Virus genome (UHGV): UHGV-0076394
Source of the DNA: a virus
Strand: one strand, 5' to 3'
Length of the DNA: 34,814 nt
Below are positions 691-27,775 of the stretch, piece by piece; the stretch's first letter is position 1; each line of letters starts with the position of its first letter. The position numbers were made by a program, and so were the translations under genes. Below the pieces are notes generated by a model, which worked only from the letters and a program-made list of their open reading frames with translations, was not told the origin of the DNA and did not search any database.

Positions 691-1743
691 TTACGGGGTA
701 ATGCCAACCGCTGCCGCCACTTTGTCGCCACTTGGCAGCGTTGCCAGAGGATTGAAACGGAGCGCCGTTTCCAGATGATCCGGTGCCAGATGTGCGTAAC
801 GCATAGTCATTTTTATATCGTGGTGTCCGAGAATTTTTTGTAAGGCCAGAATGTTTCCACCCGACATCATGAAGTGCGCCGCAAACGTATGGCGCAGAAC
901 GTGTGTGAGTTGACCGCGAGGGAGCACGATAGACGTTTTTTCCATCACGGATAAAAATTGAAAATAGCAGTCTGTGAAGAAATTGAACCCATCAAGCGCC
1001 ATGATCTCTTCGTAAAGCTCTTTACTGATAGGGATGCTTCTGTTTTTCTTCCCCTTCGTTCTTACAAAGGTAATTCGGTATTTGGTCACCTGTGAACGAG
1101 TAAGATTTACGGCTTCTCGCCAGCGTGCGCCTGTGCTTAAGCATATCTTAACTACCAGTGCTAGAATTGGGTCCTGACGTTTGCAATCAGCCAGTAATTC
1201 AACAATCTGCTCATGGGTAAGCCATGCCATCTCTTTTTCTGCGATGGTGAATTTTCGCATGTTCTCCAGTGGGTTCGGATACGACCATTCGCCCAGACGG
1301 GATAGTTCGCTAAAAACACTACTTAGATAGCTTTGCTCCAGGTTAATGGTGACCGGGCTTGCTCCTTTCTTCCATTTCTCGCTGAAGTAGATCTCGCCTG
1401 TCAGGCGTTTATCTCGATAGTGGGCAAACATTTTAGAGGTGAGATCGGTTGCAAGAGGATTGCCCAGAGCGTCAACCATCAGCAGCAATTTGTCATAGAC
1501 ATGCTGCCCAGCAGTCAGAGATTTACCATGTAGTTTGAACCATAGCTCAACCACGTCTTTCAGGGTTCGACGATCCACTGATTCGCCCAGCCATGGCTTT
1601 GATTCGGTTTCTTCCATAGTGTGACGCTCAAAAGCCAGAGCTTCGCCTTTGGTGGCGAATTGTTTACGCACACGACGCCCACTTCGTCCGGCGGGGTAAC
1701 ATTCGCAAAGCCATTTCCCTGTGGTGAGTTTTCGTACTGCCAT
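691..1743 (-). CDS. int: Tyrosine site-specific integrase (P2/186 type)
   Basis: ORF 691..1899 minus; C-terminal catalytic region with ARWREA, HVLRHTFA and MRYAHL motifs; start set to the internal ATG at 1743 (MAVRKLTTGKW...) which has a GGAGGG Shine-Dalgarno 8 nt upstream. Confidence 0.9.
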   Translation of the reverse strand: MAVRKLTTGKWLCECYPAGRSGRRVRKQFATKGEALAFERHTMEETESKPWLGESVDRRTLKDVVELWFKLHGKSLTAGQHVYDKLLLMVDALGNPLATDLTSKMFAHYRDKRLTGEIYFSEKWKKGASPVTINLEQSYLSSVFSELSRLGEWSYPNPLENMRKFTIAEKEMAWLTHEQIVELLADCKRQDPILALVVKICLSTGARWREAVNLTRSQVTKYRITFVRTKGKKNRSIPISKELYEEIMALDGFNFFTDCYFQFLSVMEKTSIVLPRGQLTHVLRHTFAAHFMMSGGNILALQKILGHHDIKMTMRYAHLAPDHLETALRFNPLATLPSGDKVAAAVGITP

Positions 1744-1931
1744 AAAAAATGCCCTCCAGTAGAGAGCATTTTTACTGTATGTATAACCAGTGTCAATGTA
1801 TGAAATCCTACGACCATACATCTCACTGAAGCCATAATGAAGTTGGCTATTCTTTTTGCTATGTGAGCATGTAACTTTTGCGGTTAACCTGCGGCTCATT
1901 TTTATTTTAGACGCAGATATAAAAGCAAAAG

Positions 1932-9123: not shown

Positions 9124-10242
9124 ATGTATCTTTTCAAGTATTACCGTCCGGACTTCTTCTTCGAGAAAGCTATTCGTTATAATGAATTATATTTTTCCGC
9201 TCCTGCGCAATTGAATGATCCCAATGATCTCAATATAGATTATCGCTTCGATAATAAATTGAAATTATGGGATATTTTATTGCGTTCTCCTTGCGATAAA
9301 TCCTATAAAAATTTGAGTCACATATTGGATTTGAGTAATTTGAAAATACATAAGGGATTGAATCGTATTTTTAGAGGAAAAAAAATAAAAAGTAGCATTG
9401 AGTCATTAGATAGCCTGTTTGACTCACACGTTGATGAGATACGTAAGATCATAGATGATGGTTTACTACCTATCAATGTGATTAATTCTGCTATTTATGG
9501 AAATATTCCTGAACCACGCCAATATTTGGTTTCACTTTGCGAGAACAGTATCAAAGAAAGGTTGTATAGGAAAATAGTTCCTGCAGTATTCAGTGTGTCA
9601 TTTTCAGCTAATGCGTTAGATCGTATGATGTGGGCGCATTATGCTGCTGGCTTTAGTGGTTGTGTTGTGATTTATGAAACGCAGGATTTTAATATTGATG
9701 GTATACCCTATACTGGAATGAAGCTAAGAGAAAATTTATTTTCATCAGATAAATTTAATTTTCCAGTTAAGCCAATAAAATATAGTAATCAGGCTAAAGA
9801 GGTTTCACTTCTAGACCCAAGCGCAAATGTTGCAGAGTTATTTTTAACTAAAAATAGATTTTGGAGATATGAAGCTGAATATCGAATGTTTATTCCGGAG
9901 GCAAATGCAGGAATAGGGAGTGAGCGGCATGTTCAAAGACGCGTAAATCGAAATATTGGACATATTTTTCATCATGATGCTAATGTTGTTAAAGGGATCA
10001 TTTTTGGTCCTAGAATGTGTGAAATGAAAAAAGAAAGCATATGGAATTGTATCAAGTCAAATATGGAGAATTCAAATTCAACAATATGTTATTTTTTTGA
10101 CTCTGAGTTATCAGCATCAGGAAAGATTACTATTTCAAAAGGGCAACGAGCGGAAAAAATGAAAAATTTCACTTTGTTCAGGAACAAGTTAAGTCAGACG
10201 GAAATGGCTAAAGTTTTGAAGGAAATTGGCATTACGAACTAA
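9124..10242 (+). CDS. DUF2971-like protein (372 aa), AT-rich accessory gene
   Basis: N-terminus MYLFKYYR...NELYFSAPAQLNDPNDL and internal MWAHYA / FWRYEAEYR motifs as recalled for DUF2971; strongly AT-rich compared with flanking phage genes. Confidence 0.6.
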   Translation: MYLFKYYRPDFFFEKAIRYNELYFSAPAQLNDPNDLNIDYRFDNKLKLWDILLRSPCDKSYKNLSHILDLSNLKIHKGLNRIFRGKKIKSSIESLDSLFDSHVDEIRKIIDDGLLPINVINSAIYGNIPEPRQYLVSLCENSIKERLYRKIVPAVFSVSFSANALDRMMWAHYAAGFSGCVVIYETQDFNIDGIPYTGMKLRENLFSSDKFNFPVKPIKYSNQAKEVSLLDPSANVAELFLTKNRFWRYEAEYRMFIPEANAGIGSERHVQRRVNRNIGHIFHHDANVVKGIIFGPRMCEMKKESIWNCIKSNMENSNSTICYFFDSELSASGKITISKGQRAEKMKNFTLFRNKLSQTEMAKVLKEIGITN

Positions 10243-10308
10243 CCTAACAACAGTGCATGCCTATGCTGCCTGAATTTGCATGACCGTTTGAGGATCGTTT
10301 TTGCTAAG

Positions 10309-10332
10309 GCCCGCCAGAACTGGCGGGCTTTT
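10309..10332 (+). terminator. Rho-independent terminator GCCCGCCAG-aa-CTGGCGGGC-TTTT
   Basis: Perfect 9-bp GC-rich stem, 2-nt loop, followed by TTTT; 67 nt downstream of the DUF2971-like gene stop. Confidence 0.7.
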
Positions 10333-10377
10333 GCGTGGATCAGGCACCTGCATGAAAACCACTACACAAAGCGGGTA

Positions 10378-10396
10378 GGCGTGGCGGGGATACGAG
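10378..10396. other. Candidate cos (cohesive end) core GGCGTGGCGGGGATACGAG
   Basis: First 13 nt equal the start of the 19-nt cohesive end recalled for phage 186 (GGCGTGGCGGGGA...); lies in a GC-rich backbone-like segment between the two AT-rich cargo genes; not verified. Confidence 0.3.
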
Positions 10397-10472
10397 CGCG
10401 CGGAAGCAGTTTCACATATAATTCGATTGGTGTAATCTGAGCTACAACTTAAGAAAAGAGGATGAGTTAATC

Positions 10473-12212
10473 ATGGAATTGCACGCATATACTAGAACCA
10501 TATCAGAATTACTTTCTGTTAATAGAAAATATGTTGTTCCAAGATTTCAACGCGAATATTCTTGGGTAAAAGAACAAATTAATGAGCTTTGGTACGATGT
10601 AATATCTAATATAAAATTAGAGAGTGATTTCACATATTCTAATAATGAGTATTTTATTGGTTCTTTAGTTTTGGTTGGAGATGAAACAGGAAGGGAGATG
10701 CAAATAGTTGATGGTCAGCAACGACTTACAACTCTTACAATTTTTCTTTCCGTTTTATGCGAGGCGTTCAAATCAAACAATCAATCAGATTTAGCGTCTG
10801 CCCTATTTGAAAATTATATTGAAGGTCGTGATGATGATGGTAAGAAATTCTTTAAATTAATAAATGAAACGCCTAAACCTTTTTTTCAGAAAAATATCCA
10901 GCATATTAATAAGGCAGATGACATCCCACAGACACAAGAAGAGCGAAATCTCTTGTCAGCATATAAAGAAATTACATCGTTAGCCTCAAAGGAAAAGTTG
11001 GAAAAATATTTTTCAGTAGAAATTAATACTGAGGATAATTATTCCAGTGTATTAAAGGCAATTAGGGATCAGATTTTAAGATTCCTAAAGATAATTTTCA
11101 TTACTGTTAATGAAGAGGACGAGGCGTATACAATATTTGAAACATTAAATGCTAGAGGGATGAATTTAAGTTTTGTAGATTTAATCAAAAATAAATTATT
11201 TAAAGCGTTAAATGACCCACATCCAAATGATGATGCAAAAGATAATTGGAAGGCTATACGTACTACTTTAATGCAAAGAAATGGTGTAGGGACTTTTGAG
11301 AATTACATGAGGCACTGGTGGGTGTCGAAGTATGCTTATGTGAGCAATGAAAATCTTTATAAATCCTTTATTGGCAAATGGCGTAAGGGGGAAATTAATC
11401 CGGCAACCTTTATTGACGAATTGAAACAGGATGCCGAATTGTATGTACGCTTGTCATCTCCTTTGGAGAGTGATTATCCACAAATGGAAGACAAACAGTT
11501 ATTTCATTCGTTGAATGCAATTAGGCTATTTGGTATAACACAGTGTAGACCTTTTTTATTAGCCTTACTAAAGGCGAAGCAGCAAAAGAGATTACGTCAA
11601 TGTGATCTTTTAAAAGCAGTTAAATATATTGAAAATTTTCATTTTGTATTTAATGCGGTATGTTCATTAAGACCGTCAGGGATAGAAGGAGCATATTCTA
11701 AGGCCGCAAGATCTATAAATTCACCAAATGCTACAAAAGCAACTAATGGAACAACAATTGACCAGTTATGTATGTTGTTGAGTAATCGCAAGCCGGAAAT
11801 TTCTGTATTTACTGAACATTTTAGGGATATATTGTTTACTGATGACAACTCCAAACAAAAAAGATTAGTTCAATATATTATAAATAAATTTGAAATGGCC
11901 CGTCATAATGGAGATGAGTATCGTCCTAATTCTATCTCTTTAGAACATGTAATGCCTCAAAGTGCTGGCGACGATAAGGAAATAGGAATGGTTGGAAATA
12001 TAATCCCCCTGTCAAAAGAACTTAATGAGCAAGCTGGTGATAAATCATTGGCACAAAAGCTTTCTATCTATTCTCAATCGGAGTTTAGATTGACAGAAGA
12101 GTTTGTTAGTGAACTTGAAACCATTTACCATAATGAATGGAATCTCCAGTCTATTATTCAGAAGACGGATAGGATGGCTGGTGAGGCTTATATGATTATT
12201 TGGAGTCATTAA
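10473..12212 (+). CDS. DUF262/DUF1524 two-domain nuclease (GmrSD-like type IV restriction family)
   Basis: N-terminal DUF262 signatures VPRFQREYSW and DGQQRLTTL; C-terminal DUF1524-like His-Me segment SLEHVMPQS...GNIIPLSKELN; AT-rich. Confidence 0.75.
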   Translation: MELHAYTRTISELLSVNRKYVVPRFQREYSWVKEQINELWYDVISNIKLESDFTYSNNEYFIGSLVLVGDETGREMQIVDGQQRLTTLTIFLSVLCEAFKSNNQSDLASALFENYIEGRDDDGKKFFKLINETPKPFFQKNIQHINKADDIPQTQEERNLLSAYKEITSLASKEKLEKYFSVEINTEDNYSSVLKAIRDQILRFLKIIFITVNEEDEAYTIFETLNARGMNLSFVDLIKNKLFKALNDPHPNDDAKDNWKAIRTTLMQRNGVGTFENYMRHWWVSKYAYVSNENLYKSFIGKWRKGEINPATFIDELKQDAELYVRLSSPLESDYPQMEDKQLFHSLNAIRLFGITQCRPFLLALLKAKQQKRLRQCDLLKAVKYIENFHFVFNAVCSLRPSGIEGAYSKAARSINSPNATKATNGTTIDQLCMLLSNRKPEISVFTEHFRDILFTDDNSKQKRLVQYIINKFEMARHNGDEYRPNSISLEHVMPQSAGDDKEIGMVGNIIPLSKELNEQAGDKSLAQKLSIYSQSEFRLTEEFVSELETIYHNEWNLQSIIQKTDRMAGEAYMIIWSH

Positions 12213-13289: not shown

Positions 13290-15052
13290 AAAATCTCCAC
13301 AATATTGCTGGTATTGGCGGACTCGCCCTGCAGCGGTTCGTTAAACAGTGCGTGCATTGTTGCCCAGGCCAGATCGGCATGGCTGGCTTCTTCGCTGCGG
13401 CTGGCTTCATAGGTCGGGCGGTTGCCGCTGGCGGTGGTGGCGCGGCGGATTGCCATAAATGACTGCGCTATGTCGGTGTGTCCGGCGTCAAACTCCAGAC
13501 GGCGGTGGCTGATAATGTCATAGGCCTTGAGTACCAGGGCGTTTTTAACATTGGGGTTGTAGACAAACTCCCGGACGGCAGGAAAGAACGCTTTCACGTT
13601 CTCATAAACTCCGTGACCGACACCTGTCGAGTCGATGCCGATATAAGTCACGTTGTACTGTTCGGTCAGTTTTTTGATGGCGTCAGCCTGGGCGCGAAAG
13701 TCCATCCCGCGCCACTGGTGACGCTCAAGAATGCGAAACTTGCCGCCCGGCACGGCTGGCGGTGCCACCACCACGCATCCGGCGCTGTCGCCGTTCTGCG
13801 TACCTTTGGCCGGGTCATAACCGATCCACACTTCGCGCCAGCCAAACGGGCGCAGTGCCAGTGCATGAAAGTCGGTCCAGACTTCCCAGCTGTCCACCAT
13901 GCACGCCTGCAGCTCGCTGAGCGGGAACACGGACGCGAGATCGTCCACGAACTCGCACATCAGCAGGTTTTGGTATTCGTCCGGGCTGTACTCCATGCGT
14001 AGCTGGTCGAGGTCGAACAGGTTACAGCCGCCGCGCACCGCATCTTCCACGGTGACTATCTGGCGGTATTGCCCGTCAGCGCACAGCAGGCCGGGGGCCA
14101 GATTGTTGTGGGACAGGTCGATGTCCACCTTATCGGCTTTGTTGCGTCCACGGTTGAACAGCGCACCGGACCAGAACGGATAAGCACTGTGGGTCAGGCT
14201 GGATGGCGTGGAAAAATAGGTTTGTCGCCATTTTTTGTGAATAGCCATACCGGAAGCCACTTTGCGCAGCTCCTGGAATTTCGGTATCCAGAAATATTCA
14301 TCCAGATACAGGTTGCCGTGGTAACTCTGGGCCGTGCGGGCATTGGTGCCGAGGAAGTAAAGCGTGGCCCCGTTAGGAAGCACCATCGGATCGCCTTTCA
14401 GCTCCACCTCCACTTCTTTGGCGAAGTCGATGATGTACTGCTTAAAGACGTGGGCCTGTGCCTTACTGGCGGAAAGGAAAATCTGGTTACGCCCGGTAAG
14501 CAGGGCGTCAATCAGGGCTTCACGGGCAAAGTAAAAGGTCGCGCCGATCTGGCGTGACTTCAGCAGGTTGCGGATGCGGTTGGTTTTTCCGGCTTCCCAC
14601 CAGTGGCGCTGGTAGTTGAACATGGAGGAATGGAAGATTTCTTCCAGCTTCTCAATCTGCTCATCGGTGAAAACATTCTTTTCCGGCTGACGGCGTGGGC
14701 CTTTGTTGCGGTTGGCGACGTTAGGGTTTAAGTCGGCTTCGTTGCCGCCATTGTTAAACTTGCCGATCCGCGCGTGGCGCTCCGACTGGCGCGCCAGCAG
14801 GTCAATCTCTTTGAAATCTTTCCCTTCTTTGTGCTCCTTCATGATGAGCTGGCAGTAGCGTGCGGTGGTGGTGAGCTGCATCTGATCCAGCGGCCCATAG
14901 TCACCCCACTTGTCGCGTTTTTTCCAGCTGTGAACGGTTGCAACTTTCTCGCCCAGCATTTCAGCTATGCGGGCTACGCGGTATCCCTGAAAGTACAGCA
15001 GCATGGCCTGCCGACGGGGATCGAGATCTGCGGGTGTCAGTGTGGTGTTCAT
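13286..15052 (-). CDS. P: Terminase large (ATPase) subunit (P2 gpP family)
   Basis: 588 aa; Walker A-like SRQIGATFY; divergent from the O N M L operon as in P2. Confidence 0.85.
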   Translation of the reverse strand: MNTTLTPADLDPRRQAMLLYFQGYRVARIAEMLGEKVATVHSWKKRDKWGDYGPLDQMQLTTTARYCQLIMKEHKEGKDFKEIDLLARQSERHARIGKFNNGGNEADLNPNVANRNKGPRRQPEKNVFTDEQIEKLEEIFHSSMFNYQRHWWEAGKTNRIRNLLKSRQIGATFYFAREALIDALLTGRNQIFLSASKAQAHVFKQYIIDFAKEVEVELKGDPMVLPNGATLYFLGTNARTAQSYHGNLYLDEYFWIPKFQELRKVASGMAIHKKWRQTYFSTPSSLTHSAYPFWSGALFNRGRNKADKVDIDLSHNNLAPGLLCADGQYRQIVTVEDAVRGGCNLFDLDQLRMEYSPDEYQNLLMCEFVDDLASVFPLSELQACMVDSWEVWTDFHALALRPFGWREVWIGYDPAKGTQNGDSAGCVVVAPPAVPGGKFRILERHQWRGMDFRAQADAIKKLTEQYNVTYIGIDSTGVGHGVYENVKAFFPAVREFVYNPNVKNALVLKAYDIISHRRLEFDAGHTDIAQSFMAIRRATTASGNRPTYEASRSEEASHADLAWATMHALFNEPLQGESANTSNIVEIF

Positions 15053-15097
15053 GGCACAAACCTACAGCCTTGAATGAAGGCTTTCCCCGCCTGCGGT

Positions 15098-15115
15098 TTG
15101 TGTGGTTGTCGGTAC
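15098..15115. promoter_or_regulatory. TGT-N12-ACA late-promoter activator element in the divergent P/O control region
   Basis: TGTgtggttgtcggtACA in the 142-bp region between divergent P and O; P2/186/P4 late promoters carry a TGT-N12-ACA dyad centred near -55 for Ogr/B/Delta activators. Confidence 0.45.
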
Positions 15116-15194
15116 AAATACCGCGCATTGTTTCCCTGCCCCCATCACCGCAACCATAAGGCTCCAGTAAGTTTTTTCTAACGGAGCACGGCTC

Positions 15195-16028
15195 ATGACA
15201 GTGAAAGCAAAGCGTTTTCGCATCGGGGTGGAAGGTGCCACCACCGACGGACGCGAAATCCAGCGTGAATGGCTGGAACAGATGGCAGCCAGCTACAACC
15301 CGGCGGTGTACACCGCGCTGATTAACCTTGAGCACATCAAGTCTTATCTGCCGGACAGCACCTTTAACCGCTACGGCAAGGTGACGGCGCTGTTTGCTGA
15401 AGAAATCACGGAAGGTCCGCTGGCGGGCAAGATGGCACTGTATGCCGACGTTGAGCCAACGGAGTCCCTGGTGGAACTGGTGAAAAAAGGCCAGAAATTA
15501 TTCACCTCTATGGAAGTCAGCACGAAGTTTGCTGATACGGGCAAAGCCTACCTGGTCGGCCTGGCTGCTACAGATGACCCTGCCAGTCTGGGCACTGAAA
15601 TGCTGACATTCAGCGCCAGTGCAGCCCATAACCCGCTGGCAAACCGCAAGCAGAATCCTGCCAATCTCTTTACCGCTGCAGAGGAAACGGTGATCGAACT
15701 GGAAGAAATCCAGGAGGACAAACCGTCCCTGTTTGCCCGTGTCACGGCGCTGTTTACCAAAAAAGAGCAGTCCGATGACGCCCGGTTCTCTGATGTGCAT
15801 AAGGCCGTGGAGCTGGTCGCTACTGAGCAGCAAAACCTGAGCGCACGCACCGAAAAATCCCTGTCTGAGCAGGAAGAACGTCTGTCTGAGCTGGAGACTG
15901 CCCTGCAGGCACAGCAGACCGCCTTTAACGAACTGGTGAATAAGCTGAGTCATGAAGACAGCCGCCAGGACTACCGCCAGCGTGCAACAGGTGGTAACGC
16001 CCCCGCTGACACTCTGACCAATTGCTGA
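15195..16028 (+). CDS. O: Capsid scaffolding protein (P2 gpO family)
   Basis: 277 aa; FRIGVEGATTDGREI...INLEH...YLVGLAATDDPASLGTE and C-terminal ATGG...LTNC match recalled gpO features. Confidence 0.85.
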   Translation: MTVKAKRFRIGVEGATTDGREIQREWLEQMAASYNPAVYTALINLEHIKSYLPDSTFNRYGKVTALFAEEITEGPLAGKMALYADVEPTESLVELVKKGQKLFTSMEVSTKFADTGKAYLVGLAATDDPASLGTEMLTFSASAAHNPLANRKQNPANLFTAAEETVIELEEIQEDKPSLFARVTALFTKKEQSDDARFSDVHKAVELVATEQQNLSARTEKSLSEQEERLSELETALQAQQTAFNELVNKLSHEDSRQDYRQRATGGNAPADTLTNC

Positions 16029-16044
16029 TGGAGCACAAAACCCG

Positions 16045-17103
16045 ATGAAGAAGAATACCCGCTTTGCTTTTAACGCTTACCTGCAGCAGCTGGCGCGTCT
16101 GAACGGTGTGGCAGTTGAAGAACTGTCCAGCAAGTTCACCGTAGAGCCGTCTGTACAGCAGACGCTGGAAGACCAGATTCAGCAATCCGCCGCTTTCCTG
16201 ACGCTGATTAACGTCACGCCAGTGACTGAGCAGTCTGGTCAGCTGCTGGGGCTGGGTGTTGGCAGCACCATTGCCGGAACCACTGACACCACCGCGAAAG
16301 AGCGTGAACCTGTCGATCCGACGCTGATGGTCGATGTGGAATACAAATGCGAGCAGACCAACTTTGACACGGTGCTGACCTACGCGAAGCTGGACCTGTG
16401 GGCGAAGTTTCAGGATTTTCAGGTGCGTATCCGTGACGCCATCGTGAAACGTCAGGCACTGGACCGCATCATGATCGGCTTTAACGGCGTGAAGCGTGCG
16501 AAAACCTCCAACCGTAGCGAAAACCCGCTGCTGCAGGATGTAAATAAAGGCTGGCTGCAGAAAATCCGTGAGGATGCACCGGATCACGTCATGGGCAGCA
16601 CCACCACGGGCGGTGAAACCACACCGGGCGCAGTGAAAGTCGGCAAAGGTGGCGAATATGCCAACCTGGACGCCGTGGTGATGGATGCCGTCAATGAGCT
16701 TATCGACGTGGTTTACCAGGACGATGACGATCTGGTGGTGATTTGCGGTCGTGAACTGTTGTCTGACAAGTATTTCCCGCTGGTCAACAAAGAGCAGGAG
16801 AACAGTGAAAAACTGGCTGCAGATATGATCATCAGCCAGAAACGCATGGGTGGCCTGCAGGCCGTGCGTGCGCCGTTCTTCCCGCCGAATGCGCTGCTGA
16901 TCACCCGTCTGGATAACCTGTCCATCTACTGGCAGGAAGACACTCGCCGCCGTTCAGTTATCGACAACCCGAAACGTGACCGGATTGAAAACTTTGAATC
17001 CGTTAACGAAGCCTATGTGGTTGAGGACTACCGCTGCGCCGCACTGGTGGAAAACATCCAGATTGGCGACTTCAGCGCCGCCGCAGCAGAAACCGGAGCG
17101 TAA
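16045..17103 (+). CDS. N: Major capsid protein (P2 gpN family)
   Basis: 352 aa; TRFAFNAYL...KFTVEPSVQQTL...GFNGVKRA...VGKGGEYANLDA colinear with gpN. Confidence 0.9.
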   Translation: MKKNTRFAFNAYLQQLARLNGVAVEELSSKFTVEPSVQQTLEDQIQQSAAFLTLINVTPVTEQSGQLLGLGVGSTIAGTTDTTAKEREPVDPTLMVDVEYKCEQTNFDTVLTYAKLDLWAKFQDFQVRIRDAIVKRQALDRIMIGFNGVKRAKTSNRSENPLLQDVNKGWLQKIREDAPDHVMGSTTTGGETTPGAVKVGKGGEYANLDAVVMDAVNELIDVVYQDDDDLVVICGRELLSDKYFPLVNKEQENSEKLAADMIISQKRMGGLQAVRAPFFPPNALLITRLDNLSIYWQEDTRRRSVIDNPKRDRIENFESVNEAYVVEDYRCAALVENIQIGDFSAAAAETGA

Positions 17104-17106
17104 TCC

Positions 17107-17757
17107 ATGAGCCTGAGTCCCGCACGGCAGCATCGCCTGCGCGTTCAGGCTGAACAGGCCGCCCGCGAGGGCGGCAGTGTTCGCCACGCGTCGGGCTATG
17201 ACCTGATGCTGCTGCAACTGGCGGAAGACCGCCGCCGTCTCAAGGGCGTTCAGTCCACGGTCAAAAAAGCGGAAATCAAGGTGGAGCTGCTGCCGAAATA
17301 CGTCGCCTGGGCAGAGGGTGTCCTGGCTGCCGGAGGCGCTCAACAGGATGACGTGCTGATGTACGTGATGCTGTGGCGCATTGATGCCGGAGATTATGCC
17401 GGGGCGCTGGAGATCGGGCGTCATGCCCTGCGTCATGGCTGGGTGATGCCGCTGGGTAATCGCAATGTGCAGACCGTGCTGGCAGAGGAAATGGCAGACG
17501 CGGCGCAGAGCGCAATGCTTGCCGCCACCGGCTTTGATGCCGATCTGTTGCTGCAGACGCTGGAGCTGACAGACGGTCTGGATATGCCGGACCAGTCACG
17601 GGCGCGTCTGCATAAAGCGATTGGCGCTGTCCTGAGTGAAAGCAACCCGGCTTCCGCCCTTAATCATCTCAACCATGCGTTACAGCTCGATCCCCGCTGT
17701 GGCGTGAAAAAAGACAAACAGCAGCTGGAGCGCAGACTGCGCAATGACAGCCGCTGA
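17107..17757 (+). CDS. M: Terminase small subunit (P2 gpM family)
   Basis: 216 aa; position after N; ...AQDDVLMYVMLWRIDAGDYAGALEIGRHAL... resembles gpM. Confidence 0.8.
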   Translation: MSLSPARQHRLRVQAEQAAREGGSVRHASGYDLMLLQLAEDRRRLKGVQSTVKKAEIKVELLPKYVAWAEGVLAAGGAQQDDVLMYVMLWRIDAGDYAGALEIGRHALRHGWVMPLGNRNVQTVLAEEMADAAQSAMLAATGFDADLLLQTLELTDGLDMPDQSRARLHKAIGAVLSESNPASALNHLNHALQLDPRCGVKKDKQQLERRLRNDSR

Positions 17758-17852
17758 CAGAACGTGCCCCCGCGCACGGGCGGCACGGGGTGGCGAAAGG
17801 CACTGCCACATCAAAACCCCGTCCACCGCCCTCTATTTCAGGAGAAAGCAGC

Positions 17853-18317
17853 ATGAAGTTTGTTGCGCCAGAACAGGCACCGGAACAGGCGGAAATCATC
17901 AGAAACACGCCGTTCTGGCCTGATGTGGACCTGTCGGAGTTTCGCAGTGTCATGCGCACTGACGGCACGGTGACGCAGCCGCGTTTAAAGCAGGTTGCGC
18001 TGTCGGCAATTTCGGAGGTCAACGCAGAGCTGTATGAGTTTCGCAGACGCCAGCAGATGCTGGGATATTCCTCGCTGGCAGAGGTTCCGGCGGAGCAGCT
18101 GGACGGCAAAAGTGAGCGCATTCAGCACTATTTCAACGCGGTTTACTGCTGGGCACGCGCCATGCTCAACGAACGATACCAGGACTATGACGCCACGGCA
18201 TCCGGTGTGAAGCGGGGCGAGGAACTGGCGGAAGCAAGCGGTGATTTGTGGCGTGACGCCCGCTGGGCCATCAGCCGGGTGCAGGATGCGCCGCACTGCA
18301 CAGTGGAGCTTATCTGA
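17853..18317 (+). CDS. L: Head completion/stabilisation protein (P2 gpL family)
   Basis: ATG at 17853 with AGGAGAAAG Shine-Dalgarno; C-terminal LWRDARWAISRVQ...CTVELI resembles the gpL C-terminus. Confidence 0.8.
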   Translation: MKFVAPEQAPEQAEIIRNTPFWPDVDLSEFRSVMRTDGTVTQPRLKQVALSAISEVNAELYEFRRRQQMLGYSSLAEVPAEQLDGKSERIQHYFNAVYCWARAMLNERYQDYDATASGVKRGEELAEASGDLWRDARWAISRVQDAPHCTVELI

Positions 18318-18520
18318 TGAAAGTGCGTGCGCATCAGTATGACACGGTGGACGCGCTTTGCTGGCGTCATTACGGGCGCACGCAGGGTGTCACGGAGCAG
18401 GTACTGAAGGCAAATCCGGGGCTTGCCGAATACGGCCCCTTTTTACCTCACGGGCTGCAGGTGGAGCTGCCGGACATTCCGACCACCACCACCGTGCAGA
18501 CCGTCCAGCTATGGGACTGA
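18317..18520 (+). CDS. X: Tail protein X (P2 gpX family)
   Basis: 67 aa; ATGA overlap with L; conserved position. Confidence 0.75.
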   Translation: MKVRAHQYDTVDALCWRHYGRTQGVTEQVLKANPGLAEYGPFLPHGLQVELPDIPTTTTVQTVQLWD

Positions 18521-18523
18521 ATT

Positions 18524-18739
18524 ATGACGCTTGAGCGAATCAGCGCCTTTATCACGTATTGCATCGCCGTCGTGCTGGCCTGGCTGGGCGATTTGTCCAT
18601 CAAGGATGCCTCAACGCTGGGCGGCCTGATGATTGGTGTGCTGATGCTGGCTATCAACTGGTACTACAAACACAAAGCCTACCAGCTTCTGCGCGACGGG
18701 CAGATCTCGCGGGAGGACTATGAATCCATCAATCGTTAA
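18524..18739 (+). CDS. Holin (two predicted transmembrane helices)
   Basis: 71 aa with two hydrophobic segments and a charged C-terminus; immediately upstream of and overlapping the endolysin gene. Confidence 0.65.
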   Translation: MTLERISAFITYCIAVVLAWLGDLSIKDASTLGGLMIGVLMLAINWYYKHKAYQLLRDGQISREDYESINR

Positions 18740-19232
18740 ACGCTGCCTTGTCGGGGCCGTGCTGGCTATTGCTGCCACGCTGCCGGGTTTTCAGCAGGTT
18801 CACACCTCCGTGGAAGGGCTGAAACTGATTGCCGATTACGAAGGCTGTCGTCTGCAGCCGTATCAGTGCAGCGCGGGTGTCTGGACCGACGGCATTGGTA
18901 ATACGTCAGGCGTCATTCCCGGCAAAACCATTACGGAGCGACAGGCAGCAGAAGGGCTGATCTCCAACGTGCTGCGTGTGGAGCGGGCGCTGGAAAGGTG
19001 TGTGAAGCAACAGCCGCCGCAGAAGGTGTATGACGCTGCGGTGTCGTTTGCCTTCAACGTGGGAACGGGCAATGCCTGCAGTTCCACGCTGGTGAAATTA
19101 CTCAATCAGCGGCGCTGGGCAGATGCGTGCCGACAGTTGCCGCGCTGGGTTTATGTGAAAGGTGTTTTTAATCAGGGGCTGGATAACCGCCGTGCGCGGG
19201 AGATGGCCTGGTGTTTACAGGGAGCAAACTGA
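18720..19232 (+). CDS. K: SAR endolysin, T4-lysozyme fold, P1 Lyz type (Glu-Cys-Thr active site with regulatory cysteines)
   Basis: GGGAGGA Shine-Dalgarno; weakly hydrophobic Gly/Ala-rich N-terminus (RCLVGAVLAIAATLPG) typical of a signal-anchor-release domain; catalytic segment YEGCRLQPYQCSAGVWTDGIGNT has Cys where T4 lysozyme has Asp20, the spacing seen in P1 Lyz. Confidence 0.7.
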   Translation: MNPSIVKRCLVGAVLAIAATLPGFQQVHTSVEGLKLIADYEGCRLQPYQCSAGVWTDGIGNTSGVIPGKTITERQAAEGLISNVLRVERALERCVKQQPPQKVYDAAVSFAFNVGTGNACSSTLVKLLNQRRWADACRQLPRWVYVKGVFNQGLDNRRAREMAWCLQGAN

Positions 19233-19233
19233 A

Positions 19234-19611
19234 ATGAAAAAGAAATTAATCAGCGGACTGTTTCTGATGTTATGGATGGCGCTGTTAATCGCAGCAATGG
19301 TGTATCCGCAGGGGATTTTTCCGGTACTGGCAGCGTCCGGTGTCTGGGTAGCCTGTTTGCTGACATGGGCGGTAATTCCGGTAGCACTGGCTGCGTTAAT
19401 TAAGAACGGCCCGCTCTGGCAGGAGTTGAGGGCATCTTTGCTGAAGAAAATTACCCGAAAAGAAAACGTATTTATCAGCTGGGTGATGCGATTGCTGATT
19501 GTCGTCAGTCTCGCCTGGACGGGGTGGGCTATTACCCTGGTCTTTTATCTACTGACCGTTATTGCCTTCTGGATCACCCGTAATCAGATGGCACAACAGG
19601 TAGCAGCATGA
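19234..19611 (+). CDS. lysA: LysA-like membrane protein (lysis timing/antiholin-like)
   Basis: ATG at 19234 directly after the K stop; about 125 aa with several hydrophobic helices; position of P2 lysA. Confidence 0.6.
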   Translation: MKKKLISGLFLMLWMALLIAAMVYPQGIFPVLAASGVWVACLLTWAVIPVALAALIKNGPLWQELRASLLKKITRKENVFISWVMRLLIVVSLAWTGWAITLVFYLLTVIAFWITRNQMAQQVAA

Positions 19612-20036
19612 ACCGGTTGCTGCTGGTTGTGCTGGCGTTATTACTGGCGGCGCTGGGCTGGCAGACGTGGCGGCTGGCTGATGCCAGCCAGACCATCAGC
19701 ACGCAGGCAGACGAGCTGCAGAGCAAAAGCCAGGCACTGGCAAAGAGCAACAGCCAGCTTATCAGCCTGTCCATTCTGACTGAAACCAATAACCGGGAGC
19801 AGGCGCGGCTCTATGCCGAAGCTGAACAGACCAGCGCACTGCTGAGACAACGACAACACCGGATTGAGGAACTGAAACGTGAGAACGAGGATTTACGCCG
19901 CTGGGCTGATACTCCTTTGCCTGCTGACATTATCCGGCTGCGGGAACGCACCACACTCACCGGAGGTGCAGCTTACCGTCAGTGGTTGTCCGCGAGTGAC
20001 GCCGTGTCGGTTGGGGCAGGCAGCGCCGCGCACTAA
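19608..20036 (+). CDS. lysB: LysB, Rz-like inner-membrane spanin
   Basis: N-terminal transmembrane segment then coiled-coil-like charged region; contains the embedded lysC frame. Confidence 0.7.
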   Translation: MNRLLLVVLALLLAALGWQTWRLADASQTISTQADELQSKSQALAKSNSQLISLSILTETNNREQARLYAEAEQTSALLRQRQHRIEELKRENEDLRRWADTPLPADIIRLRERTTLTGGAAYRQWLSASDAVSVGAGSAAH

Positions 20037-20169
20037 CGGTGATCTGAACGTATTGCTGGATGAAACGGAGGCCGCCTGGGCGGTCTGTGCAGACAAAGTG
20101 GACATGATTATTGCGTGTCAGGAGCGAAACAGTGAACAAACCACAATCCCTGCGCCACGCCCTCAATAA
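19879..20169 (+). CDS. lysC: LysC, Rz1-like outer-membrane lipoprotein spanin (embedded in and extending beyond lysB, +1 frame)
   Basis: GTG start; lipobox LTLSGC then Pro-rich mature region; classic embedded/overlapping Rz1 architecture. Confidence 0.65.
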   Translation: MRTRIYAAGLILLCLLTLSGCGNAPHSPEVQLTVSGCPRVTPCRLGQAAPRTNGDLNVLLDETEAAWAVCADKVDMIIACQERNSEQTTIPAPRPQ

Positions 20170-20563
20170 AGCGGTGCCTTATGTCCGCAATAACCCGGAC
20201 AAATTGCATCTGTTTGTGGATAACGGTTCGCTGGTTGCCACGGGGGCCAGCTCCATGTCGTGGGAGTACCGTTACACCCTGAACGCGGTGATTGAGGATT
20301 TCAGCGGCGACCAGAATCTGCTGATGGCCCCGGTTTTGCTGTGGCTGCGTGATAACCAGCCCGATGCCATCAATAACCCGGCGTTACGGGAAAAGTTATT
20401 CACCTTTGAGGTGGATATTCTGCGCAATGATGTCTGTGATATCAGCCTGAACCTGCAACTGACGGAGCGTGTGCTGGTCAGCACTGACGGGAGTGTGTCG
20501 AGTGTTGAAGCGGTAGCGGAACCCGATGAACCTGATGAAATGTGGACGGTGAAACGTGGCTGA
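20132..20563 (+). CDS. R: Tail completion protein (P2 gpR family)
   Basis: Probable GTG start at 20132 with AGGAG Shine-Dalgarno; ...LHLFVDNGS...RYTLNAVIEDFSGD...VLLWLRDNQPD... resembles gpR. Confidence 0.75.
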   Translation: MNKPQSLRHALNKAVPYVRNNPDKLHLFVDNGSLVATGASSMSWEYRYTLNAVIEDFSGDQNLLMAPVLLWLRDNQPDAINNPALREKLFTFEVDILRNDVCDISLNLQLTERVLVSTDGSVSSVEAVAEPDEPDEMWTVKRG

Positions 20564-21002
20564 ACTGCAGAAGGTGGACGACTGGCTGAGTGCCTTGCTG
20601 GCGAATCTGGAGCCAGCCGCAAGAAGCCGCATGATGCGCCAGCTGGCGCAGGAACTGCGCCGGACACAGCAGCAGAACATCAGGATGCAGCGCAATCCAG
20701 ATGGCAGCAGTTATGAGCCGCGACGGGTAACAGCACGCAGCAAAAAGGGGCGCATCAAACGTCAGATGTTTACAAAGCTGCGCACCACAAAATACCTGAA
20801 AACTGCCGCCAGCGCCGATTCTGCCAGCGTGCAGTTTGAAGGTAAGGTGCAGCGCATTGCCCGCGTTCATCACTACGGCCTGCGTGATCGCATCAGTCGA
20901 AGAGGACCGGAGGTCCGTTACGCAGAGCGTCGTCTCCTAGGCGTAAATGATGATGTGGAAACTGTCATTCAGGATGCTTTGCTAAATTGGTTACAGAGAT
21001 AA
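20556..21002 (+). CDS. S: Tail completion / virion morphogenesis protein (P2 gpS family)
   Basis: 148 aa; GTG start overlapping the R stop; conserved position. Confidence 0.75.
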   Translation: MAELQKVDDWLSALLANLEPAARSRMMRQLAQELRRTQQQNIRMQRNPDGSSYEPRRVTARSKKGRIKRQMFTKLRTTKYLKTAASADSASVQFEGKVQRIARVHHYGLRDRISRRGPEVRYAERRLLGVNDDVETVIQDALLNWLQR

Positions 21003-21028
21003 ATAAAACCACATTTATAAAATTTAGT

Positions 21029-21895
21029 TTACTTTTTACTGATAAATGGATTCCTATCAATCCATGAGTCCCAGTTTATATAATTGTCATCAAATCCTAT
21101 GAATTTCATTAGTACAAGTGGCACCAGTAAATTCAAATTTGATGAGTAATCTTGAATTTCAATTTTGCCATCTGAGTTTTTTTCATCAAGATAGGCAATG
21201 TATTTACCATTGTGGAACAGCGAGTGACGGAGTTTGCAGTAATGCATAATGTTTCTTTGAGCTAATGTATGTCCTGTTTTTTCGACATTAAAACCATATT
21301 CTTTTAAAACCTGAGTGATTATTTGTGGTGTTTTGGCAGGGGAGTAGTCATTTTTAATAAATCTGCAAAGTGCTTCTAGTGCCGAGAATAATAAATAATA
21401 TCTGACGTCGATATAATTTATTGAGTCGCGGAAAGCTAGCATTGATTTAAAAAATGATGTTCTAAAGGCATCTTGTTTTAGCATGGCTTTACTATTTAGT
21501 TTTTCCATGGCTAAGCAAATAAAATTTTCTCGGCTGTTTGGTGCAAAATAATCTTCCATGATGATAATGCCCGCACCCTTATCTCTTTTTTTGTCAAGCT
21601 TTTTGGGTAGAGATGGTTTGAAATTGAAAGGGGTTTCATCATTTTCAAGTTCTCCTGAAATGATTACATTTTTTTGTTCAATAAAACTAAGAACTGCTTG
21701 TAAATCAAAAATAAGCTGCTGTTGAGTGGCGTAGTTATTCGAGTTTGGTTTGAAAAAACCAGTGAGGATGTACCTATCATTAGCCCAGCCATTTTTTTTT
21801 AACTCACTCCATGAACTGAAAATAGGAGTTAACTCACCACCGTCAAATGTGATTTTTTTAGTGAAATTAAATCCATAAATTGCGATTTGTGTCAT
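21029..21895 (-). CDS. AT-rich accessory protein (289 aa) with R-x4-H motif; candidate HEPN/Abi-like defence protein
   Basis: Minus-strand gene inserted between S and V; ATG at 21895 preferred over 21943; contains CKLRHSLFHNG (R-x4-H); markedly AT-rich. Confidence 0.55.
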   Translation of the reverse strand: MTQIAIYGFNFTKKITFDGGELTPIFSSWSELKKNGWANDRYILTGFFKPNSNNYATQQQLIFDLQAVLSFIEQKNVIISGELENDETPFNFKPSLPKKLDKKRDKGAGIIIMEDYFAPNSRENFICLAMEKLNSKAMLKQDAFRTSFFKSMLAFRDSINYIDVRYYLLFSALEALCRFIKNDYSPAKTPQIITQVLKEYGFNVEKTGHTLAQRNIMHYCKLRHSLFHNGKYIAYLDEKNSDGKIEIQDYSSNLNLLVPLVLMKFIGFDDNYINWDSWIDRNPFISKK

Positions 21896-21924
21896 CTTAA
21901 ATACCTTAGAAATTGTTTCTCTTT

Positions 21925-21942
21925 TGTATGGTTCTCCATACA
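21925..21942. promoter_or_regulatory. TGT-N12-ACA dyad (TGTATGG-ttct-CCATACA), candidate late promoter pV activator site
   Basis: Perfect 7-bp inverted repeat conforming to TGT-N12-ACA about 50-65 nt upstream of the V start codon, in the short region shared with the divergent cargo gene. Confidence 0.45.
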
Positions 21943-21990
21943 TACGCTCTGTATTACATCACTCTACCCGGTTGTGCAAGGATCGCTCTC

Positions 21991-22569
21991 ATGAACGCAC
22001 AATTAACCGAAATCATGCGCCTTATCACCAACCTGATCCGCACTGGGGTAGTCACCGAAGTGGACCGGGAAAACTGGCTTTGCCGGGTGAAAACGGGCGA
22101 CCTTGAAACCAACTGGATCAGCTGGCTGACGCTGCGTGCCGGGAATGCCCGCACATGGTGGCGACCATCGGAAGGTGAGCAGGTAGTGCTGCTGAGTCTG
22201 GGCGGCAATCTGGAGACTGCCTTTGCGCTGCCCGCTGTCTATTCGAATCAGTTCGCACCACCGTCGAAGTCGGCGGACGCCTGCGTGACAGAACATCCTG
22301 ACGGTGGCTGGTTTGAATACGAACCCGCCACCGGGCGCTGGTATGTCAGGGGCATCAAATCAATGGTCATTGAGGCCGCTGACAACATCACCATGAAAAC
22401 CAGTGAGTTTGTACTGGAGGCTGACCGCACGCGTATTAACAGCGAAGTAGTGATCAATGGTGGCGTTACCCAGGGCGGCGGTGCGATGAGTTCTAACGGA
22501 ATTGTGGTTGATGCACATCAGCATACTGGCGTCCTGAAAGGCGGCGACACAACCGGAGGCCCGGTATGA
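21991..22569 (+). CDS. V: Baseplate spike / assembly protein (P2 gpV family)
   Basis: Start at ATG 21991 (MNAQLTEIMRLITNLIRTG...); ...WLTLRAGNARTWWRPSEGEQV...SNG..H.H match recalled gpV features. Confidence 0.85.
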   Translation: MNAQLTEIMRLITNLIRTGVVTEVDRENWLCRVKTGDLETNWISWLTLRAGNARTWWRPSEGEQVVLLSLGGNLETAFALPAVYSNQFAPPSKSADACVTEHPDGGWFEYEPATGRWYVRGIKSMVIEAADNITMKTSEFVLEADRTRINSEVVINGGVTQGGGAMSSNGIVVDAHQHTGVLKGGDTTGGPV

Positions 22570-27162: not shown

Positions 27163-27217
27163 TGCAGAGATTACGGCTAACTGGCATCATCCCAGATTTT
27201 TATTCAGGGGATTGATC

Positions 27218-27775
27218 ATGCTTATTGGCTATGTACGCGTGTCAACAAATGACCAGAACACCGATTTGCAACGTAATGCACTGAACTGCGCGGGATGTGA
27301 GCGAATTTTTGAGGATAAAATCAGTGGCACTAAGTCCGACAGACCGGGGCTAAAAAAACTGCTCAGGACACTATCGGCAGGAGACACGCTGGTCGTCTGG
27401 AAGCTGGACAGGTTGGGGCGCAGTATGCGGCATCTTGTTACGCTGATAGAAGAGTTGCGCCAGCGTGGCGTGAATTTCCGAAGCCTGACTGACAGTATTG
27501 ATACCAGTACCCCAATGGGCCGTTTCTTTTTTCATGTCATGGGTGCCCTGGCTGAAATGGAACGCGAACTGATAGTTGAACGCACTATGGCAGGGCTGGC
27601 TGCAGCTCGTGCCAAAGGCAGAGTAGGTGGACGCCGTCCTAAGTTGACCACCGAACAGTGGGCACAGATTGGACGTTTACTCGAGGCCGGAGAATCAAGA
27701 CAGCGTATTGCACTGATTTTTGACGTGGGCGTTTCTACCATTTATAGAAAATTTCCGGCGAATAAGAGCAATTAA
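27218..27775 (+). CDS. Serine DNA invertase (Gin/Hin/Cin/Pin family)
   Basis: N-terminus MLIGYVRVSTNDQNTDLQRNAL with the catalytic Ser in the YVRVS motif; C-terminal HTH; about 186 aa. Confidence 0.9.
   Translation: MLIGYVRVSTNDQNTDLQRNALNCAGCERIFEDKISGTKSDRPGLKKLLRTLSAGDTLVVWKLDRLGRSMRHLVTLIEELRQRGVNFRSLTDSIDTSTPMGRFFFHVMGALAEMERELIVERTMAGLAAARAKGRVGGRRPKLTTEQWAQIGRLLEAGESRQRIALIFDVGVSTIYRKFPANKSN

Follow-up and report, generated by a model that had tools for sequence, protein, structure and literature searches.

Export, membrane tethering and release of an endolysin through a signal-arrest-release (SAR) segment have been established experimentally for Lyz of phage P1 and in part for Lys of phage HP1 (PMC9025707, PMC7312051), and the catalytic Cys of P1 Lyz is kept in a disulfide until activation (PMC3556154); the background on the P1 Lyz mechanism used here was drawn from these three papers and from the titles of Protein Data Bank (PDB) entries. 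For HP1, experiments indicate that the holin, Hol, acts as a pinholin and that Lys is a SAR endolysin dependent on Sec: Lys alone lyses Escherichia coli, phage release is azide-sensitive, and Hol kills without lysis and without release of beta-galactosidase (PMC7312051). An endolysin from the Klebsiella phage KP12 was described in 2023 as P1-Lyz-like, with a conserved SAR domain and a TM-align score of 0.83 to the P1 Lyz structure 1XJT, and as lying in a P2-type cassette with overlapped spanins (PMC9902359). The KP12 protein (KP12.peg.319) was purified and spot-tested on K. pneumoniae lawns to validate its lytic capacity; the Cys triad, export and release were not analysed in that study, which favoured another gene, peg.280, as the pinholin (PMC9902359). 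Here we describe the lysis cassette of the viral genome UHGV-0076394, a stretch of 34,814 nt referred to below as the window, and in particular a holin gene and an overlapping endolysin gene at positions 18524 to 19232. Together with the genes that follow, they very probably serve as the late lysis genes of a prophage of the P2-like group (Peduoviridae) in which the Y and K genes of P2 have been replaced by an HP1-family holin and a P1-Lyz-type SAR endolysin. The cassette is already known: both the type of system and the phage group have been described before, and a near-identical sequence has been published (PMC9902359). The features on which the analysis centred are:

18524–18739, plus strand: holin gene, 71 aa
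18711–18716, plus strand: ribosome-binding site GGGAGG of the endolysin gene, read from the sequence, within the 3' end of the holin coding sequence
18720–19232, plus strand: gene for a 170-aa SAR endolysin with the GH24 (T4 lysozyme) fold, belonging to the P1 Lyz subclass and containing 7 Cys
18744–18791, plus strand: predicted SAR segment C9–F24 (CLVGAVLAIAATLPGF), with K7 and R8 directly before it and C9 as the candidate isomerising thiol
18840–18887, plus strand: catalytic motif E41-G-C43-x6-C50-x5-T56, from phmmer and MAFFT alignments

Both open reading frames (ORFs) lie where the initial annotation had placed them and overlap by 20 nt. The placement of the ribosome-binding site within the holin gene suggests that translation of the two genes is coupled.

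The endolysin matched the GH24 profile PF00959 with 137.3 bits (cut-off 22.3; E = 4.5e-40) over profile positions 2–125 of 125. In a phmmer search against the PDB, its top match was P1 Lyz (1xjt, E = 8.2e-27), and the alignment showed a common block, EGCRxxPYxCxAGVWTDGIGNT, in register without shifts; the resemblance is one of homology rather than coincidence. The initial annotation had read from the sequence a catalytic region E-G-C-x6-C-x5-T with a Cys at the position of Asp20 in T4 lysozyme, arranged as in P1 Lyz, and these statements held. The pattern is matched exactly, the letters being E41-G-C43-RLQPYQ-C50-SAGVW-T56, with E41 assigned as the catalytic Glu, C43 as the caging partner, C50 as the catalytic-position Cys equivalent to Asp20 of T4 lysozyme, and T56 as the catalytic Thr. 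When the endolysin was aligned by MAFFT to P1 Lyz, HP1 Lys and T4 lysozyme, along with 14 diverse relatives, the alignment placed C9, E41, C43, C50 and T56 in the columns of P1 Lyz C13, E42, C44, C51 and T57; E41, C50 and T56 in those of T4 lysozyme E11, D20 and T26; and C9 in that of HP1 C11. These residues fit the GH24 catalytic triad Glu-8X-Asp/Cys-5X-Thr (PMC3556154). The sequence search reached a single T4 lysozyme entry, the D20C mutant 1qtz.

The fold is likewise close to that of active P1 Lyz. An AlphaFold model built on an alignment of 52 diverse sequences had a predicted local distance difference test (pLDDT) score of 94.2, and residues 11–30, all above 94, were packed on the enzyme body. 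A first model, from a shallow alignment of relatives with at least 79% identity, was discarded (pLDDT 64, with the catalytic region below 50). Foldseek returned active P1 Lyz (1XJT) first, with a template modelling (TM) score of 0.86 over 173 aligned columns, vs 0.57 for the secreted inactive form (1XJU); the phage 21 endolysin R21 (0.79), the DLP12 endolysin (likewise a good match), P22 lysozyme (0.73) and T4 lysozyme (about 0.6) were also matched.

The peptide initially quoted as a weakly hydrophobic, Gly/Ala-rich N-terminal segment (RCLVGAVLAIAATLPG) is present as residues 8–23, and the description was borne out by the hydropathy check. The segment C9–F24 consists of 16 uncharged residues, of which 7 are Gly, Ala or Thr and one is Pro. 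In the best 17-residue span, the membrane-insertion sum was +3.1 for the endolysin and +2.7 for P1 Lyz, unlike those of the stable anchors of two proteins encoded downstream, LysB (-0.8) and the first transmembrane domain (TMD1) of LysA (-2.8). These sums, on the scale of Hessa et al. 2005, are semi-quantitative. The N-terminal segment is thus marginally hydrophobic, as SAR domains are. C9 is invariant within the clade of the endolysin. A lipoprotein signal was rejected for this protein, there being no lipobox before C9.

The strongest computational evidence for a SAR domain acting through disulfide isomerisation comes from the co-variation of cysteines across the family. A set of 1.84 billion cluster representatives (50% identity) was searched, and the best 150, together with reference proteins, were classified and aligned to a profile. 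A Cys in the SAR segment was found in 17 of the 19 SAR-bearing proteins with Cys at the D20 position, the two exceptions beginning within the segment and looking like N-terminally truncated gene calls, vs none of the 7 SAR-bearing proteins without it (6 with Asp, i.e. the R21 type, and 1 with Val); the contrast gives a Fisher p of 5e-5, which overstates independence since the sequences are related. This pattern supports disulfide-isomerisation control and argues against cleavage of a signal peptide.

The remaining cysteines fit this picture. The pair C137 and C165 (window positions 19128–19130 and 19212–19214) occurs in 23 of 26 SAR-type proteins vs 2 of 81 soluble relatives (p = 5e-18), Asp-type and R21-type SAR relatives included, and is presumably a periplasmic structural disulfide that serves as a signature of exported endolysins. 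The pair C94 and C120 is restricted to the close clade, with P1 and HP1 having a pair at shifted positions. The odd number of seven cysteines fits two presumed disulfides (C94/C120 and C137/C165) plus a trio of C9, C43 and C50, which would always leave one free thiol.

The Glu-Cys-Thr triad, which the initial annotation had used as the mark of a P1-Lyz-type enzyme, is present, although its diagnostic value alone did not stand, as many soluble relatives without a SAR segment carry Cys at the same position. Cys at the Asp20 equivalent is widespread in soluble, SAR-less GH24 endolysins, in the forms ELCT, EFCT and ECCT (representatives P0163 to P0266), and is therefore not a SAR-specific adaptation; 28 ECCT and 23 ELCT representatives were found among these proteins, often with an equivalent of C43 as well. 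The phiCbK protein gp104 makes the same point, having the triad Cys but no SAR segment (PMC3556154). Judged from the alignments, the diagnostic feature is the third Cys, the one within the SAR segment, and not the triad.

Several observations weigh against regarding the protein as a disulfide-controlled SAR endolysin: i) C9 lies at the N-terminal rim of the hydrophobic stretch, right after K7-R8, whereas C13 of P1 Lyz lies several residues inside, ii) A-I-A at residues 16–18 might in theory be cut by signal peptidase I, iii) as the C43/C50 pair is common in soluble relatives, the pair alone does not imply caging, and iv) Sec export without signal-peptide cleavage, tethering and depolarisation-driven release of this endolysin, as well as isomerisation from C43-C50 to C9-C43, would be extrapolations. 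The first alternative is that the N-terminus is an ordinary Sec signal peptide that is cleaved, yielding a mature soluble periplasmic lysozyme with, at most, control by a C43-C50 disulfide. Such a peptide would have K7 and R8 as its n-region, a short h-region and A-I-A as the cleavage site, and SignalP-type tools did call the N-terminus of HP1 Lys a signal peptide (PMC7312051). However, a Cys that is invariant in the clade and co-varies with the catalytic-position Cys would be pointless in a discarded peptide, so that cleavage is hard to reconcile with its conservation; the AlphaFold model packs residues 11–30 on the enzyme body, the arrangement of active P1 Lyz, in which the SAR segment is kept; and an enzyme constitutively present in the periplasm would kill the host before assembly was complete. 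In addition, P1 Lyz carries the same A-I-A motif in the phmmer alignment and is not known to be cleaved there. A cleaved signal peptide is therefore considered highly improbable.

A second alternative accepts the SAR segment but has the enzyme controlled by conformation and topology only, like R21, with the cysteines being structural and no isomerisation taking place. The frequency of C43/C50 equivalents in soluble relatives that lack the SAR Cys would agree with this, as would the good structural matches to the R21 and DLP12 endolysins (TM 0.79). On the other hand, all three cysteines of the P1 Lyz arrangement are conserved at aligned positions, and a SAR Cys occurs only where the catalytic position is Cys, the SAR segments of R21-type proteins being without one. 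Control of the R21 kind is thus unlikely here, and a SAR endolysin of the P1 Lyz type is the reading adopted below.

Given the homology, the register of the motif, the active-form-like fold, the marginal hydrophobicity, the cysteine co-variation and the gene order and overlap observed in the window, we infer by homology the following course of events. The endolysin would be exported via the host Sec system and tethered to the inner membrane, N-in/C-out, by the weakly hydrophobic segment C9–F24, with the periplasmic catalytic domain held inactive by a disulfide locking C50 to C43. On triggering of the holin, collapse of the membrane potential would let the SAR segment leave the bilayer; the C9 thiol could then attack C43-C50, forming C9-C43 and freeing C50, while the N-terminal segment folds back against the body of the enzyme. 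Once active, the muramidase would cut the murein, after which the LysB/LysC spanin would disrupt the outer membrane, and the LysA homolog may modulate the timing of lysis.

The holin belongs to the same families as HP1 Hol. It scored 36.7 bits (cut-off 28.8) with PF16080 (the HP1 holin family, holin superfamily II) and matched phrog_20, the PHROG of HP1 Hol, at 1.9e-26; RefSeq names it 'HP1 family phage holin'. Other members of phrog_20 are a PF16080 holin of a lambdoid-like Yersinia phage and two holins of Pseudomonas podophages (Autographiviridae). The score with PF04971 (phage 21 S family) was 23.2 bits, under the cut-off of 26. Hydropathy indicates a class II topology, with TMD1 at about residues 6–22, TMD2 at about 30–46 and a charged C-terminal tail (KHKAYQLLRDGQISREDYESINR). 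Invariant in the clade are a stripe of small residues at i+4 spacing in TMD1 (S7, T11, A15, A19), followed by G22, and G34xxxG38 in TMD2. The in-frame TGA stop of the upstream gene for the tail protein gpX, read from the sequence, lies 3 nt ahead of the holin ATG; no N-terminal extension or dual-start motif is therefore possible, and a dual-start holin/antiholin was rejected.

A protein homolog search with the holin returned only Enterobacterales relatives with at least 56% identity, and divergent relatives were obtained by tblastn against phage records. A PDB sequence search with the holin gave no solved relative, the only matches being chance ones to photosystem I helices (E > 0.8). Seven divergent relatives (28–37% identity) were found, in the Yersinia phages vB_YenM_06.16-2, vB_YenM_210.17 and vB_YpM_MHG75, the Erwinia phage EtG, the Pseudomonas phages Ep4 and C171, and HP1, and thus in P2-like, lambdoid-like and Autographiviridae phages as well as HP1. 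All seven lie directly 5' of an endolysin gene whose product has a SAR-like N-terminus, four of these endolysins being of the P1 Lyz type with a SAR Cys, one of the R21 type and two Asp-type GH24 enzymes of Autographiviridae. The TMD1 of the window holin had an insertion-scale sum of -0.8 and that of a P2-like Yersinia relative -2.4, vs +4.9 for the phage 21 holin S21, +3.6 for HP1 Hol and +2.9 to +3.4 for the Pseudomonas and lambdoid-like Yersinia relatives. The weakly hydrophobic, SAR-like TMD1 by which a pinholin is recognised was thus not found in the window holin (-0.8 on the same scale).

The initial annotation had left it undecided whether this protein is a canonical holin or a pinholin, rightly so, as its family and pairing favour a pinholin while the hydrophobic TMD1 counts against one. 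We give about an even chance to its being a pinholin that forms only small depolarising channels, lysis then depending wholly on the SAR endolysin exported beforehand. It shares its Pfam and PHROG families with HP1 Hol, which kills without lysis or release of beta-galactosidase (PMC7312051), and its score with the phage 21 S family is near the threshold. The window holin and all seven divergent relatives are paired with SAR-type endolysins and none with a soluble one, G34xxxG38 in TMD2 is invariant, and holin and endolysin have been exchanged jointly relative to P2, 186 and PSP3. Set against this are the stably hydrophobic TMD1 and the phage 21 model, in which a membrane-locked TMD1 blocks pinhole formation; since TMD1 would need to exit the membrane, a mechanism of the phage 21 kind is doubtful for the window holin. 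Moreover, eight pairings are a small sample, P1 LydA shows that SAR endolysins work with canonical holins (PMC9025707), and a published AlphaFold heptamer of the identical protein KP12.peg.320 was of low confidence (pLDDT of about 51) (PMC9902359).

That the protein is instead a canonical class II holin making large holes is a serious possibility, if somewhat short of an even one; SAR control would then come on top of holin control and be partly redundant with it, an arrangement seen in P1 with LydA. Its two stably hydrophobic TMDs point this way, there is a homolog of LysA, a protein that P2 encodes along with a canonical class I holin, and a SAR endolysin and a canonical holin coexist in P1 (PMC9025707). 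However, no examined family member is paired with a soluble endolysin, and the sole experimentally tested member behaves like a pinholin (PMC7312051). The window holin, that of vB_YenM_06.16-2 and, less clearly, that of EtG form an enterobacterial P2-like branch of the HP1 family that combines a stably hydrophobic TMD1 with a SAR endolysin, and a LysA-type four-helix protein is encoded beside the branch holin in this prophage and in EtG. We suggest, as a tentative and rather doubtful proposal, that holins of this branch release the SAR endolysin by a mechanism other than that of phage 21, in which TMD2 forms heptamers once TMD1 has left the membrane, with LysA as a timing partner independent of the holin family.

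On either reading of the holin, the genes around the pair have the layout of a P2-type lysis cassette, the order in the late operon being X-holin-endolysin-lysA-lysB-lysC-R-S, so that the P2-like context given in the initial annotation was recovered, with gpX upstream and LysA, LysB and LysC homologs followed by gpR and gpS downstream. The neighbouring genes are:

18317–18520, plus strand: P2 gpX-type tail protein (PF05489, 2.2e-34; 61% identical to P2 X), at the 5' edge of the cassette
19234–19611, plus strand: P2 LysA homolog, 125 aa with four hydrophobic helices (phrog_162, 2.1e-43; NCBIfam NF038378, 121.8 bits)
19608–20036, plus strand: LysB, Rz-like inner-membrane spanin subunit (i-spanin) with a stable N-terminal anchor (TIGR03495, 170 bits; phrog_89)
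19879–20169, plus strand: LysC, Rz1-like outer-membrane lipoprotein spanin (o-spanin), overlapping LysB (PF23793, NF038368)

P2 LysA itself matches phrog_162 at 1.8e-67 and hence belongs to the same family as the LysA homolog of the window, which is a candidate lysis-timing or antiholin protein. From its GTG start, LysC has the signal peptide MRTRIYAAGLILLCLLTLSG|C with an LSGC lipobox and is 42% identical to P2 LysC over residues 1–92, the N-terminus included. The start of the o-spanin differs among annotations: RefSeq uses a CTG at 19921 (82 aa), which leaves just six residues ahead of the lipobox Cys, and KP12 has an ORF of 57 aa. The GTG at 19879 is favoured here because the product from this start is homologous to P2 LysC (96 aa) and begins with a well-formed lipoprotein signal peptide. 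A scan of positions 15000–22100 for promoters and terminators gave counts equal to the shuffled expectation, as expected for activator-dependent P2 late promoters.

Many database 'lysozymes' of 277–296 aa (clusters P0012, P0024 and about 30 others) proved to be the endolysin fused to the LysA homolog. The loss of one G in ...GCCTGGTGT... causes a frameshift after residue 163, giving ...AREMACVYREQTEM(N/K)KK... (window positions about 19208–19236), which drops W164 and C165 and continues via the window ORF 19162–19611 into lysA. This variant, found on at least 30 contigs, complete genomes included, probably reflects either a single lineage of decaying prophages or an error that recurs in sequencing.

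By gene content and profile matches, the whole window is a complete P2-like prophage, the other parts of which are:

691–1899, minus strand: integrase
other prophage genes: 186-type CI repressor, replication gene A, AT-rich cargo, portal and terminase genes
late part: O-N-M-L-X, the lysis cassette, R and S, and an AT-rich gene on the opposite strand
3' part: baseplate, tail-fibre, invertase and tail genes

Three regions outside the cassette are worth noting: 1) Positions 9124–12212 (plus strand), between the replication region and the portal gene, are AT-rich (33–36% GC vs about 55% in the flanks) and probably constitute an anti-phage defence island in a P2 hotspot. The cargo includes a 372-aa protein matching the PADLOC candidate system PDC-S31 (1e-23) and, weakly, DUF2971, and a 579-aa GmrSD-type (DUF262/DUF1524) type IV restriction enzyme (PF03235, 4e-38; PF07510, 5e-14; PADLOC HEC-06, 1e-90). 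2) A 304-aa AT-rich gene (33.5% GC) at 21029–21943 (minus strand), between the tail genes S and V, has the slot and orientation of P2 orf30; it matches phrog_4373, of unknown function, at 2.8e-142 and gave no match in Pfam, NCBIfam or PADLOC. In E. coli strain 61, IS1 lies beside a shortened version of this gene. 3) A Hin/Cin-type serine invertase is encoded at 27212–27775 (plus strand; PF00239, 6.7e-53, and HTH_7), downstream of the tail-fibre genes H and G, which suggests an invertible tail-fibre (host-range) segment, as in Mu and P1.

Of 5426 complete E. coli genomes, 1038 carry the 1.9-kb cassette, mostly at 95–99% identity, and in strains 61 and 64 the identity is 100%; the cassette also occurs at 97% identity in 33 phage records, nearly all of them Klebsiella prophage-derived phages. 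The holin was found in at least 591 IMG/VR contigs. In the 80 IMG/VR loci returned, all holins were 100% identical, and 75 had an intact endolysin of 170 or 171 aa with the same motif. RefSeq names the products of the cassette 'HP1 family phage holin', 'lysozyme', 'DNZ54_00345 family protein', LysB and LysC. Our analysis offers a correct and more precise annotation than the bare 'lysozyme' of RefSeq and carries little weight as a discovery; the co-variation gives independent computational support to the disulfide-isomerisation model of P1 Lyz, and the hydrophobic TMD1 raises the question whether every HP1-family holin is a pinholin.

Compared with known systems, there is essentially no difference from the KP12 cassette (KP12.peg.316–320, OM835953), in which the gene order is the same, the holin (KP12.peg.320) is 100% identical, the endolysin is 97.6% identical (4 substitutions), and the LysA homolog and LysB are 98.4% and 97.2% identical; the window cassette is of the E. 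coli type, being 100% identical to that of strains 61 and 64. With P1 Lyz, the window endolysin (about 35–36% identity) shares the GH24 fold, a SAR segment with a Cys, E-G-C-x6-C-x5-T and the C-terminal Cys pair, all in register. It differs in having the SAR Cys at the N-terminal rim (KRC) rather than inside the segment, in lacking an insertion of about 11 residues that follows the FN(V/M)G motif in P1 Lyz, and in the position of its C94/C120 pair, which is not that of the ERC.../...GC pair of P1 Lyz. P1 lyz is not adjacent to the holin genes lydA and lydB, whereas the holin and endolysin genes of the window overlap.

With HP1, also a P2-like phage, the window shares overlapping hol and lys genes, a PF16080/phrog_20 holin, and an endolysin with a SAR Cys and EGC-x6-C-x5-T. 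The two holins are, however, barely similar (BLASTP E = 5.5) and differ in TMD1 (+3.6 in HP1 Hol vs -0.8), the endolysins are 34% identical, and HP1 has no LysA homolog. With phage 21, the window has in common a class II holin with two TMDs and, after it, a GH24 SAR endolysin (R21, PDB 3HDE and 3HDF; TM 0.79), and the C-terminal Cys pair of the window endolysin is present in an R21-type relative. Unlike the window endolysin, R21 has Asp at the catalytic position and no SAR Cys, and hence no disulfide control. The window holin differs from S21 in falling below the PF04971 cut-off, in lacking a dual-start motif and in its hydrophobic TMD1.

The cassette occupies the same slot as Y-K-lysA-lysB-lysC of P2, in the late O operon with X on one side and R/S on the other, and LysA, LysB and LysC are homologous to their P2 counterparts. 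P2 Y is, however, a class I holin of an unrelated family (PF04550/phrog_175) and resembles the window holin weakly (E = 0.003, obtained with a tiny database). P2 K, a soluble endolysin that has no N-terminal hydrophobic segment, was rejected as a homolog of the window endolysin (BLASTP E = 0.2). Phages 186 and PSP3 are also of the Y/K type, with X, lysA, lysB, lysC, R and S still homologous. Relative to these phages, holin and endolysin have been swapped together as a two-gene unit within an otherwise conserved P2-type cassette, which supports the functional pairing of the two genes.

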